Shown piece by piece: positions 3,996-59,107 of a stretch of DNA of 64,000 nucleotides. Location: NCBI GenBank assembly GCA_964016885.1, contig OZ024744.1, forward strand, positions 25,854,001-25,918,000, in the 5' to 3' direction. Position numbers and translations under genes: made by a program. This stretch comes from Eledone cirrhosa. Taxonomy: Eukaryota. Below the pieces are notes generated by a model that was not told the DNA's origin, did no database searches, and worked only from the letters and a program-made list of their open reading frames with translations. Numbering within the stretch: the first letter of the stretch is position 1; each line of letters begins with the position of its first letter.

Positions 3996-4078
3996 TTATT
4001 AGCTATCGTCATCAACGTATACCTTCCTGCGTTCAATCATCTGGCAGGAAGGTATACGTTGCTGACGATAGCTAATAA
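3996..4078. repeat. 35-bp fold-back inverted repeat at the 5' junction of an HHR element
   Basis: 3996-4030 is the reverse complement of 4044-4078 with 1 mismatch. Confidence 0.9.
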
Positions 4079-4098
4079 GCTTGAAACTAGTACAGCGT
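4056..4098 (+). ncRNA. Minimal type I hammerhead ribozyme
   Basis: Stem I ACGTTG/CAGCGT; CTGACGA; T-AGCT-aata-AGCT-T; GAAA; palindromic stem III ACTAGT; GUA triplet, predicted cut after 4092. Confidence 0.8.
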
Positions 4099-4402
4099 TC
4101 CTTTGTCAGTGTTGAACAAATGAGCAACGAAGGTTGCTAGACACTACGGCTTAATTCGGGTTGTTTGTTTACAAACACACCGAGCATTATAATAAATGTT
4201 CGGTGAATCCATACGTACATATATATATATATGTGCATGTATGTATATGTATATATATACATACTACTGTAGGTCTGTATACATATATGTGTGTACGTAT
4301 ATATACTTATATTTAAGTAACAGTCGTACTAAGACTGGGAAATGAAATTTCGTTTCATTTTTTCCGTTTATATATATATATATATATATATATATATATA
4401 TA

Positions 4403-4575
4403 AAACGAAGGAAGTGTGGTAAGGAGCCAAATGGACCATAACGCACCAGAGTACTCGATACTCAGTGTAATAGAAAAAGAGTCAGGACCCTGACGGCTGA
4501 GCTCCGGCCGTTTCGACAGCTAGATCTAGCTGTTGAAACGGCCGGAGCTCAGGCGTCGGGGTTCTGACTCTTTTC
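4403..4575 (-). mobile_element. PLE tail family A fragment with palindromic fold-back
   Basis: Homologous to 21279-21330, 21897-21980 and 49131-49391; 4474-4575 is a near-perfect palindrome centred on GCTAGATCTAGC; flanked by (TA)n. Confidence 0.8.
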
Positions 4576-4807
4576 ATATATATATATATATACATATATA
4601 TATATATATATATATAGTAGAATAATCGAGTATCGAAAAATCGGCGCACGAGTTCACGATAAACAAAATTAGAACCTCACAAGTGCTTTCCTAACCTGTG
4701 GGATTCTGGCGCACGCAGAGTAAAATGCCTGTTGAGAAAGCGATGTCTTGTTCGATCATTATACCAAAAGCTTATTTTTTATAAGCAGACAGTATTATTG
4801 ATGTATT

Positions 4808-4987
4808 GGCAGTATCGGTAGAGCGTCGGACGCCATGCTGTCCAGCATATTTACGTCCCTTTACGATATGAGTTCAAATCCCGCCGAGGTTGACTTTGCC
4901 TTTCATCCTTACGGGGTCGATAAAATAAAGTACCAGTAATTCACTGGGTAATTGCTGGCCTTGTGCCTAAAGTAGAAACAATTATTG
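4808..4987 (+). mobile_element. tRNA-derived SINE family 1
   Basis: GGCAGTATCGGTAGAGCG A-box-like head, GAGTTCAAATCC B box, conserved core, tail GCCTTGTGCCTAAAGTAGAAACAATTATT. Confidence 0.9.
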
Positions 4988-5302
4988 ATTTATGTGTTGC
5001 AGAAACCCAAATATCAGAGTATTCCATCTTTCCCGAGGGTCCGGGTAACTATTTCAATAATATCTTATTTTGTTTGACCCGTTTATCTTGTTCGCTTTTT
5101 TGTCTAAGGTGGATAATGGCTTCTTAACCATCGTCTCTGTTTGTATGACCATTTTAACTTATGTTTATAGCTCTGGTATCTTCATATCCATGGAGCGCTT
5201 GTCAGCACAATATGGATGTTGCGTTTCGCCAATTTCTACTCGCCGAAATGCGATTCTGGCTAAATTTATATTTATGTATATATATATATATATATGAAAA
5301 AG

Positions 5303-6411
5303 TGAGTCCTTCATCAGTGACCCTCCAACCGTCCTCGGCATTTCATCGCTTTAAGGGCCATATGCCTCAGGTTGGTGCGAACAACGGCTAAAAAAAGTCG
5401 TTGGGACACGTAAATAAAGGGGGACGCTAGAGTAACAACAAAAGGGTTTAAGCAACGGAAAGTGAGTAGAAATAGACAAGTCCCAGATCTCTATGAATAT
5501 AAACTCTGTGAAATCGTGAACAAGAGACGAAAGACCATCGAACCTGGTAGAAATGTGAGCAAGGAAAGAATTTCGCCCAAGTTTGACGGGGGGGGGGGGG
5601 AGAAAGAAAAAGGAGAGAAGAGGAAGAAGAAGAAGAAGAAGAAGAAGAAGAAGAAGAAGAAGAAGAAGAAGAAGAAGAAGAAGAAGAAGAAGAAGAAGAG
5701 GATAAGGTGGTCTGGTCTACGAATTCGGTAAACGCAAGTTTTGTGAAGTCGCAGACGAAAGAGAGAGAGAAAATATATATATATATACGCACACATATAC
5801 GTGTAGTTGTGCAGACAGACAGTCGTGCAGAGAGGTGATAGGCGATGAAATTGCATTTTTTTTTTGGGGGGGGGGGGCGTTCATCCAATTCCTTTGTTTC
5901 AAAATAACTGATAGTTTGGTTACGCTGATGTTTTTCTCTGAGACAAGTGTTGTAGTGTTTACATTTTCGATTTCTTAATCGATTACCAGTGCAGTTTTTA
6001 TCCCCAGCATCCTCTTTTGTTTTAACACTCGGGTTATGGTTATGTTTTCTTAACTTTATAAGGCATACTGTTGGTTGAGGGAATATTAATAAAAAGTACC
6101 ACATGAAAGTCTACACTGTAGACTCTACAGTTTTTAAGACAAGAAAGGAACTTAACATTGTAACTTTAACACAGCGACTGAGCAGCCCGAGCAACGCCGG
6201 GCTTTACTGCTAGTATATATATATCTATACTTGTTTCTTCTTATCTTTCCGTTGCAATACCATCATTGTTTGTTTACTTGTCTCGCTCGTTTCATCCTAT
6301 TTTACTTGTCCCAATAACTTTATTTAGTTATTGCTCGTGCCAACCAGAGGTATATGATTTTTAAAGCGAAGAAATACCAATGAAAGTTGGAAGATCACTG
6401 ATGAAGGACTA
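5303..6411. repeat. Diverged ~180-bp inverted repeat pair (5303-5481 / 6229-6411), each arm ending in an HHR half (CTGATGAAGGAC)
   Basis: Aligned by eye, roughly 70% identity; also visible as similar translations SPSSVTLQPSSAFHRFKGH and SPSSVIFQLSLVFLRFKNH. Confidence 0.8.
5488..6213 (+). mobile_element. Non-autonomous Helitron
   Basis: 3' hairpin GCCCGAGCAACGCCGGGC then CTAG|T at 6210-6214; candidate 5' end A|TCTCTATGAATATAAA at 5488 (less certain). Confidence 0.7.
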
Positions 6412-57135: not shown

Positions 57136-58123
57136 ATATATATATATACAGAGAGAGAGAGAGAGAGAGAGAGAGAGAGAGAGAGAGAGAGAGAGAGAGA
57201 GAGAGAGAGAGAGAGAGAGAGAGATACATACTTTATTCGGTATATTTCTTCTTCTATCCCTTCGGTTTTCTGACCCTGATTATCTCTCTCTCTCTCACTC
57301 TCTCACTCTCTTTCTCTCTATCTCTCTATGTCTATCTCTCACTCTCTCACTCTCTCACTCTCTTTCTCTCTATCTCTCTATGTCTCTCTCTCACTCTCTC
57401 TCTCTGGGATGTAGTGGGGGAAGAGTTCTCAATCATGCCTGTTATTGATCCGTGTTATTTATGATATTTGAGTGAGATATTTAGTCGCTATTCATTGTAA
57501 GTTTAATGAAATGCTGATATAAAACTGGCGAACTAGGTGTTGAAGTATTTGAGACTATTCAACAGACTATTCAACGGCGGAGACAGGAAGGTGTTTCCCC
57601 GGAGGACGGCAAGGGAGACGCGCTGGAAAAGCCACTCGAACTCGCAGGGCTCACACCTGCGCTGGCCAGCTCACCGCCTATGGGGGTGAGTAGGGAGGGA
57701 GCCCTAGGGCCGAGGTCTTTTCTATCGTAGGTGGATATAGATGAAATTTTCTGAATGAATTATGACCGGAATTAGGCTGATTTAGTGATTGATGCTCAGC
57801 TGAAAACAGTTAGCAGTCGGCAACATTTAGACGATAATATTTGCTAATTTTAAGCCACTTAAGATTGTAACAAACACAGAATTATCAACTATTTACAGCA
57901 GGTAATTGCGATGTCTTTTTATTGTGTCACTTAATTTAATCGTAATTGCCAACATCAAAACTACTGTAACAATTTCCAGCGACCTTATATTGCGTTTGAA
58001 AGAATACTCCTTTCTAATAGTAGAGGGGAAATAAAATACTAGGGCTGCACTGATCGCAGCTAAATGAGTTCATATATTAGTTTTGTATATATATATATAT
58101 ATATATATATATATATATCTACA

Positions 58124-58199
58124 ATGGGTTGTAACATAAATTCCCGCCGTTGTTATAAAACTTCTTAATAACAAACGGCGGGATTTATGTTACAACCCA
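58124..58199. repeat. Hairpin with ~30-bp arms inside (TA)n
   Basis: TGGGTTGTAACATAAATTCCCGCCGTTGTTAT / ATAACAAACGGCGGGATTTATGTTACAACCCA; partial third copy at 58269-58283. Confidence 0.88.
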
Positions 58200-58419
58200 A
58201 TATATATATATATATATATATATATATATATATATATATATATATATATATATATATATATATATATATTGGATTGTAACATACTATATATATATATATA
58301 TATATATATATATATATATATATATATATATATATATATATATATATATATATATATATATGTATTTATATATATATATATATATATATATATATATATA
58401 TATAGTATGTATGTATAAA

Positions 58420-58692
58420 GTCTAAAGTCTGTCTTAAGCCAGAAAGCTCGTTAAGCCAGTGCTTATCCCGGTTTCATGGCGTAAAGTGACTGAGAGTATA
58501 CGACTTTCCTCTGGACAGGACACCCGTCTATCACAGGGTTAATAAGCCCACCTATTGCTGGTACTCATTTTCAGCTGAGTATACTGGAGCAACGTGAAAT
58601 GAAGTGTTGCGTTCAAGAACACAACACGCAGCCCGGGAATCGACCCCACAACATTATGTTCGTAAGTCGAACACTCTTACCAGTAGGACACG
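58420..58692 (-). mobile_element. tRNA-derived SINE (family 2 type head)
   Basis: CTGGTACTCATTTTCAGCTGAGT...GCAACGTGAAATGAAGTG...CCGGGAATCGA. Confidence 0.8.
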
Positions 58693-58782
58693 CACACACA
58701 CACACACATATATATATAAATTAATAAAAACAATGAAATAAAAACAAAGAACAAGTTACTTATATTAAAAAATTCATTATTT

Positions 58783-58900
58783 TACGATCGTTTCTAGGAT
58801 GTATATGTGTGTTGGTATGTATAAAATATAGATCTATGTAAAAATATTACAAATTATCAGAGGAAATATACATACCTTCACATATACATGCCGTCCTCAG
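58783..58900 (-). ncRNA. Type I HHR with very long stem II, joined at C3 to an inverted copy of its own 3' tail
   Basis: Minus strand CTGAGGA...ATGTATATGTG/CACATATACAT, GGTATGTATA/TATACATACC...GAAA-CGATCG-TA; 58718-58745 is the reverse complement of 58900-58927. Confidence 0.7.
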
Positions 58901-59107
58901 TTTTTATTTCATTGTTTTTATTAATTTATCTTGACTCTGTTTTCCTATGATTTTTATCGAAAATGTTAAATGCATTGTCTCTTTTCATGATATTTGGATT
59001 ACATTGAGTTCTTCATACGGATTGGACACTACCGTATATTTTGGTAGATTTATCTACACACACACACACATATATATATATATATATACATATATATATA
59101 TATATTA

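Follow-up and report, generated by a model that had tools for sequence, protein, structure and literature searches.

Head-to-head insertions of Penelope-like elements into (TA)n tracts of the Eledone cirrhosa genome combine two fixed 3' ends

Inverted insertions recur among the described Penelope-like elements (PLEs), and the origin of their tandem and inverted insertions has been called an open question (PMC8557442, PMC11167929; here and below, papers are cited for the portions of their text that were available). In Drosophila virilis, the commonest Penelope structure is a partial tandem flanked by an inverted repeat (PMC2377424). In the Pen families of the rotifer Adineta vaga, pseudo-long terminal repeats (pseudo-LTRs) lie inverted and head to head, with a tail on one of them and palindromes at the junction, and self-priming was proposed (PMC3846280). 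Naiads show an inverted 5'-truncated copy, a tail that is often at one end, and (TA)n targets, with resolution by the endonuclease as the proposed step (PMC8557442); inverted pseudo-LTRs and 3' extensions of PLEs are also listed for curators (PMC8969392). For PAc, a lizard PLE (Anolis Poseidon) characterized in vitro, both strands are cut and extended, reverse transcription starts at two internal sites that are the tail boundaries, and a dimer is predicted (PMC11167929). Further background comes from non-LTR retrozymes as non-autonomous PLE derivatives (bioRxiv 10.64898/2026.07.22.740005) and from PMC13282606. Here, we analyze head-to-head insertions of PLE families that were noticed in a 64,000-nucleotide (nt) stretch of Eledone cirrhosa contig OZ024744.1 (positions 25,854,001 to 25,918,000; hereafter, the window), part of a (TA)n-rich animal genome of 3.0 Gb. 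The architecture is real and abundant in these new families and is itself already known; the novelty that a sequence-only reading of the window had attached to its dominance is not supported in view of PMC2377424, PMC3846280, and PMC8557442. What this genome adds is a near-strict pairing of two fixed 3' ends in each insertion, together with AT microhomology at these ends.

The pairing was analyzed in two young autonomous families with long open frames, P and C (17,107 and 37,886 first-look candidates, respectively). From genome searches with the endonuclease domain (150 matches listed for each), 40 P and 40 C loci were taken in list order, skipping partner hits and, for C, also the query locus; selection was by endonuclease match only. 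Both families have two fixed 3' ends, denoted S and L, which are 40 nt apart in P and 60 nt apart in C. An inverted arm was present at 28 of the 40 P loci, and all 26 simple ones combine S with L, the inverted arm ending at S in 16 and at L in 10; locus L226 contains two nested S+L pairs, and the ends at L218 are not typable. Among single-arm P copies, 11 of 12 have a TA-rich repeat at the 5' junction. In C, a same-family inverted piece was found at 21 of 40 loci, comprising 17 S+L events, one L+L event, and three untyped loci (the duplicates L282 and L283 counted as one event, L281 as two). For P and C combined, 45 of 46 typed head-to-head insertions are S+L (p = 6.7e-13 against a null of 0.5, the highest S+L share possible under independent choice of ends). 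Either arm may bear either end: of the 43 simple S+L events, 22 have S and 19 have L at the end of the shorter arm, and in 2 the arms are of equal length. Hence the earlier impression that the inverted arm usually stops short of the 3' end reached by the forward arm applies to the short copies but not to the autonomous ones. Neither a strict S+L rule nor twin priming for PLEs was stated in the literature searched, although supplements or subscription papers may hold one.

The AT microhomology that had been suspected at the end points is present: at each of the 13 ends whose native continuation can be seen, that continuation starts with 3-7 alternating A/T bases (TAT or ATAT), either directly or after 1-3 further bases. 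A search for empty sites through paralogous flanks matched 1 of 43 events (L275), a single match, with a pre-existing TA-rich tract of 28-48 nt compared to 79 nt around the insertion.

The families studied here are PLEs or share the PLE end structure. Family P contains a 784-amino-acid stop-to-stop frame with RVT_1 (E = 4e-7) and C-terminal GIY-YIG (E = 2e-6) domains, both above the cut-off, and a CX4CX2C motif ahead of GIY-YIG, as given for Neptune and Nematis (PMC8557442). In family C, the GIY-YIG match is just under the cut-off (E = 1.6e-4), and the YVDD motif was recognized by eye; upstream lies a frame with reverse transcriptase (RT; YVDD) and C-terminal GIY-YIG, and downstream, in tandem copies, a long frame that starts around the tail, with the 60-nt C tail lying at the start of this reading frame following the pseudo-LTR. 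The 3' tails (40 nt in P, 60 nt in C) both run on into the next unit in tandem copies. Partial tandems of the pseudo-LTR were found at L222, L237, and L249 (P), at L253, L264, and L268 (C), and at window positions 17560-18313 (family D).

Thus, like Penelope of D. virilis and Pen of Adineta vaga, these elements combine RT and C-terminal GIY-YIG with pseudo-LTR partial tandems, an inverted 5'-truncated head-to-head arm, and a one-end tail that overlaps the start of an open reading frame (PMC2377424, PMC3846280). Unlike Penelope and Pen as described in the available text, they occupy (TA)n targets with no scorable target duplication, their tails span 24 to ~120 nt rather than 30-40 nt, and the presence of the tail at one end, there described as optional or frequent and left uncounted, is here a matter of 45 S+L events in 46. 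PAc shares with the present families two fixed internal sites bounding the tail, use of both strands, AT-rich targets, and the lack of strand preference for either site (here, shorter arm at S in 22 events and at L in 19); its reverse transcription starts, however, are not homologous to the cut DNA, whereas 13 of 13 ends here continue into TAT or ATAT, and the available portions of the PAc text leave out the pairing of two ends on one target and the origin of the inverted arm (PMC11167929). The (TA)n preference, the inverted 5'-truncated copy, and the one-sided tail are shared with Naiads, in which the endonuclease is N-terminal and a canonical hammerhead is lacking, unlike the C-terminal domain of P and C and the putative hammerheads of several families here (PMC8557442). 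We accordingly rejected assignment to Naiad, for which an N-terminal GIY-YIG was the criterion. As in non-LTR retrozymes (bioRxiv 10.64898/2026.07.22.740005), families B and D of the window, known here from sequence alone, are built of short units in tandem that have hammerhead motifs and ends of the PLE type.

The anatomy of the arms bears on how they were made. In P and C, the inner end points of paired arms may be offset by as much as ~3 kb. The S arm extends beyond the L arm in the 5' direction in 19 of the 43 simple S+L events; in these events, neither arm can have been copied from the other. Snap-back of a single cDNA, one of the two routes offered by the sequence-only reading, is therefore excluded there and cannot be the main route, although short fold-back pieces do occur at junctions of L231, L264, L274, and L275. 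No TA tract is present at the inner junctions of typed events. The 45 junctions include 25 with overlaps of 0-5 nt (at least 2 nt in 15 of these), 15 with extra or unassigned bases, clearly templated at L231, L236, and L238, and 5 that are unmeasurable. L arms that consist of the tail only, stopping at or near S, were found at L146, L153, L154, L157, L172, L280, and L281 (families A2, H, and C). In short copies, centres vary from copy to copy and favour self-complementary words (GATC, GAGCTC, GGTACC, and TGGCCA).

Two short families of the window, A2 and H, were followed in a blind sample of the genome (1 Mb in nine blocks, of which two satellite blocks of 300 kb were dropped and 700 kb from seven contigs were kept) and in locus flanks. 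In A2, a single TTAGTCC word has the end points of 47 of 55 arms within -15 to +24, and the other 8 arms run further upstream; the native A2 sequence continues upstream of this pile-up. The H arms show a pile-up at TCACT and, close to the hammerhead core, another group of 5' ends at about +110 to +125; these could come from cleaved RNA that served as template or from insertion into an internal TA run. The TTAGTCC and TCACT words may be initiator motifs. Divergence between arms is lower within than between copies (0.013 vs 0.162 in H, 0.067 vs 0.133 in A2), and subfamily variants are common to both arms of a copy. Two candidate origins of the centres were rejected: fold-back at hammerhead cleavage sites, because in B, D, and H the centres are found upstream of the motif, and, for subfamily A1, a native stem, on the native upstream sequence.

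In LINE-1 twin priming, each of the two strands of the target primes on the RNA, and joining of the cDNAs through microhomology gives a 5' inversion; annealing of the second primer takes place at variable internal positions, and there is no overlap between the arms. Unlike in LINE-1, both sites are fixed here, 40-120 nt apart, and the arms usually overlap. We consider it probable that insertions of endonuclease-bearing PLEs and their short relatives into (TA)n arise by coupled twin priming at S and L, with the cDNAs end-joined head to head. From the observed ends, their S+L pairing, and the junction anatomy, we infer cutting, priming, a dimer, and joining, as follows. The GIY-YIG domain would cut both strands of the (TA)n tract, and each 3' TA end would pair with the 3-7 alternating A/T bases of the RNA at S or L, the dimer engaging S and L, in most cases on a single RNA or source. 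Of the two RTs, the trailing one could either stall at S, leaving a tail-only arm, or displace the leading cDNA, producing overlapping arms. The cDNAs would stop at variable points or at the 5' end of the RNA, and microhomology end-joining would follow. In mini-palindromes, both RTs would run off the 5' end of a transcript starting in the pseudo-LTR a short way upstream of S, and the run-off cDNAs would meet at a self-complementary word. If one end failed to prime, it could capture the single cDNA, yielding an ordinary 5'-truncated copy. Priming by both cut (TA)n ends on element RNA with head-to-head joining was the other route of the sequence-only reading, and three observations support it: the combination of S with L, the AT microhomology, and the arms not contained in one another. 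The in vitro behaviour of PAc, with its cutting and extension of both strands, its two internal start sites, and its predicted dimer, also speaks for coupled twin priming (PMC11167929). We also lean, if only slightly, toward the broader proposal that PLEs integrate by default via such a coupled two-ended reaction, in which the dimer would give one cut end to S and the other to L through pairing of a few AT bases, and the tail, the inverted pseudo-LTR, and the mini-palindromes would all come from one mechanism. The existing in vitro system offers a direct test of three sharp constraints: the 45/46 rule, the AT pairing at both ends, and the tail-only arms.

Several observations weigh against coupled twin priming. 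The S+L rule has exceptions: L255 and window site 18676 are both L+L, and the blind sample includes three palindromes with the same end on both arms (in families A, H, and C). The junction overlaps are raw counts, and 5 of 45 junctions are unmeasurable. The H pile-up at TCACT is weaker than that of A2 (16 of 37 arms within -5 to +14), and the transcript start near the A2 and H pile-ups is a putative one. For origin of both arms from the same RNA, the P arms are too young to discriminate, and at L264 (316-550), an inverted P arm is joined directly to a forward C copy, a mixed junction that may stem from a single event with two RNAs or from a subsequent deletion. Later deletions could also remove parts of arms, imitating non-overlap. 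Finally, the genomic pattern cannot separate priming at ATAT from endonuclease cutting at ATAT, and in the available text on PAc, reverse transcription starts are not homologous to the cut DNA (PMC11167929).

The main rival is an inverted intermediate that forms first, by self-priming or fold-back as for rotifer PLEs, and is then resolved by the endonuclease at the element's own ATAT, leaving S and L as ends, because ends at ATAT are expected there too. Both steps have been proposed for PLEs (PMC3846280, PMC8557442), perfect palindromes centred on self-complementary words are common in families A and H, and the short fold-back pieces at L231, L264, L274, and L275 fit such an origin. Nevertheless, we judge it unlikely: the inner arm ends of P and C differ by up to ~3 kb, the S arm extends outside the L arm in 19 of 43 events, some arms have no overlap at all, and in vitro reverse transcription starts at the two tail boundaries (PMC11167929).

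Two independent, opposite insertions in one (TA)n tract, with the intervening TA later lost by deletion or repair, could account for the L+L and S+S exceptions and for the mixed-family junctions at L264 and window position 49335, given that (TA)n tracts gather many insertions side by side. Such an origin predicts an S+L share of at most 50%, compared to the 45/46 seen, and the shared subfamily variants of the arms of one copy and the lack of a TA tract at typed inner junctions also make it very improbable.

The short palindromes could alternatively be fixed units resembling miniature inverted-repeat transposable elements (MITEs), spread from a palindromic master copy or through DNA transposition with TA as the target. 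TA flanks are reminiscent of Tc1/mariner targets, and many A1 copies have one common centre, although the query itself contained the palindrome. We find little to commend this explanation: centres vary in tail-selected sets, ends are asymmetric, single-arm copies exist, and the same ends run on into PLE reading frames. The fixed unit and symmetric terminal inverted repeats of a MITE or a DNA transposon were accordingly not found, and the variable centres rule out MITE-like units as a general explanation; a few palindromic copies may have spread secondarily. Assembly or amplification chimeras are scarcely credible, even though some arms are 99-100% identical (28642-29011) and, in restriction site-associated DNA sequencing reads of three other samples (X21-X23), with deep family coverage, strand-change joints are ambiguous given a reference that itself bears the palindrome and differs from most copies: chimeras would not keep two fixed element-specific ends in strict S+L pairs, arms of older copies are only 85-95% alike, control repeats lack a head-to-head bias, and contigs of the independent run X18 contain A1 head-to-head junctions with other centres (rows 4527-4523 and 4526-4522).

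The abundance of the architecture was assessed in the 700-kb blind sample, which contains 159 local inverted repeats. In 49 of these, TA is present at one end and the other end has an extension of 6-130 nt to TA, compared to 2.5 expected under random placement; TA is present at both ends in 7 (0.8 expected) and at one end only in 23 (4.9 expected), and 80 have it at neither end. The 56 TA-flanked inverted repeats amount to ~1 per 12 kb of non-satellite sequence, which makes this route of insertion a major contributor of DNA prone to hairpin formation and, potentially, of double-stranded RNA in this genome; copies of this kind are readily mistaken for MITEs or microRNA precursors. Ten window families were head to head at 29 of 106 loci and purely tail to tail at none (0/106), whereas five control repeats (two putative short interspersed element (SINE)-like repeats, recognized by a tRNA-like box, two long interspersed element fragments, and one other) had 5 head-to-head and 9 tail-to-tail arrangements among 161 loci, with one locus in both counts. 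The control repeats thus lack the head-to-head bias of the window families (5/161 vs 29/106). Families J and M had no head-to-head loci (0/20 and 0/7), many J matches being cross-matches to C tails. In genome searches with the tail only, arms paired at the S end were found at 17 of 29 A2 loci and 15 of 29 H loci, and further loci had non-overlapping arms. The description of head-to-head insertions as the dominant product therefore stands for autonomous loci (28/40 and 21/40) and tail-selected short copies but not for the blind sample, where they make up only ~1/4 of loci, a minimum figure given that the detector is blind to arms shorter than 30 nt, distant arms, and non-overlapping arms. The satellite blocks, G000:C28:25654001-25854000 (200 kb adjoining the window) and G000:C5:60000001-60100000, are nearly (TA)n-free and start as satellite arrays.

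The remaining window families are linked to PLEs to different degrees. A3, C, and P are linked to a reading frame: a GIY-YIG-like element at 19495-21326 has subfamily A3 as its 3' end, which ties family A to a coding element, although this element had no Pfam hit and is GIY-YIG-like by eye only. For G and J, the link is through similarity to the ends of P and C, whereas E, H, I, and K are placed with PLEs tentatively, by shared end structure. Families B and D are tandem units of ~430 and 465 nt with PLE-type ends and hammerhead motifs, that of B recognized by eye. A strict type I hammerhead scan matched D, H, and a D-like copy, with no match in 20 shuffles, and gave no match in A and P; B and C are hammerhead-like by eye only, and the folding of 4 of 5 motifs was no better than that of shuffles. 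The term "hammerhead families" in the sequence-only reading thus fits only some families: D, H, and the D-like copy by the strict scan and perhaps B and C by eye. An Rfam scan returned, among the 150 of 177 matches listed, only sub-threshold microRNA-like hairpins and no hammerhead family.

Within the window, self-BLAST and inspection of the sequence revealed a local inverted repeat at all 12 positions for which an inverted and a forward copy within (TA)n had been described, and this layout is confirmed. The fit is full, with (TA)n at both outer ends and unequal arms, at 10 of the 12 (4474, 16445, 17218, 18457, 28204, 28641, 49131, 53070, 53997, and 58718, the last with a short (CA)n preceding the TA run on the right). 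Of the other two, 18676 has symmetric arms, and 3996 has no (TA)n on the left. At the latter, a family B copy (3996..4368, + strand) has a left flank of (CATA)n, an internal inverted piece of only 35 nt, and a forward arm ending at L beside (TA)17, a partial fit; its hammerhead-like motif lies at 4062-4092, and the ~430-nt tandem unit occurs elsewhere. The adjacent A1 mini-palindrome (4403..4575, - strand) has (TA)n on both sides, a GATC centre, a long arm to L (4403), and a short arm to S (4575). Family C is represented by the 3' pseudo-LTR of the autonomous PLE (16445..16888, - strand), with the long arm at L (16445) and the short arm at S (16888). In the family D copy (17216..18313, + strand), the inverted arm has the tail (L) and the forward 1.6-unit tandem ends at S; the unit is 465 nt, with a type I hammerhead at 18163. 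Family E (18457..18639, + strand) has an inverted S arm and a forward arm to L, and a tail-only copy lies at 18359-18444. The arms of family F (18678..19081, + strand) both reach the long end and are 88% alike, which makes it an exception to the S+L rule. The element at 19495..21326 (+ strand) is a 5'-truncated PLE-like copy, and its A3 3' end stops at S.

In the second half of this series, family G (28208..28577, + strand) combines an inverted S arm with a forward arm to L and has distant similarity to the 3' end of the P element. Family H (28642..29098, + strand) has perfect 185-nt arms, a GGTACC centre, and an 87-nt tail, with a type I hammerhead in each arm (28912, + strand; 28741, - strand). 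Family A2 (49130..49320, + strand) again has an inverted S arm and a forward arm to L. It is followed by an inverted 57-nt A2 tail that is fused, probably with 4 nt of overlap, to the 3' end of a different GIY-YIG-like element (49335..50242, + strand), an arrangement that may be a mixed-family junction from two RNAs in one event or the product of a later deletion. Family I (53046..53279, no strand assigned) is an inverted pair with (TA)n on both sides and a left arm longer by 24 nt; its copies are too few for end typing. Family J (54000..54394, + strand), related to C, has a 32-nt inverted S arm and a forward arm with a 68-nt tail. The copy of autonomous family P used as the genome-wide query (54420..57135, - strand) is single-arm and 5'-truncated, with RT and GIY-YIG fragments and (TA)n at both ends. 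In family K (58719..59052, + strand), a 30-nt inverted S arm is combined with a forward arm bearing a ~120-nt tail.

Some further arrangements of repeats were observed. At L225 (G000:C2:359513800-359534021), the P head-to-head unit apparently recurs at least four times in tandem, with a period of ~3.9 kb. L170/L171 and L282/L283 are pairs of identical insertions; the members of each pair share their junction, lie at separate positions of one contig, and are likely segmental duplicates. The window contains an additional (TA)n-flanked palindrome with 37-nt arms (58119-58284), with no second copy in the 700-kb sample, and an inverted pair of the TA-flanked family M (5296-6476), the 110-nt arms of which are 78% alike and ~900 nt apart with other sequence between them. 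A long tandem array of a short unit occupies 24067-27420. Two broken non-LTR retrotransposon copies, ~87% alike and containing endonuclease-like and RT frames, are located at 6825-10367 and 29291-32880, and pieces of other RT-bearing non-LTR elements at 15680-16195 and 59967-61249. Copies of a very abundant SINE-like repeat, which has 96 loci in the 700 kb and served as one of the controls, are found at 4793-4986, 14554-14767, 27437-27642, 39942-40369, 43516-43659, and 61241-61356; the inverted pair at 39950-40292 consists of two oppositely oriented SINE-like copies without TA flanks.

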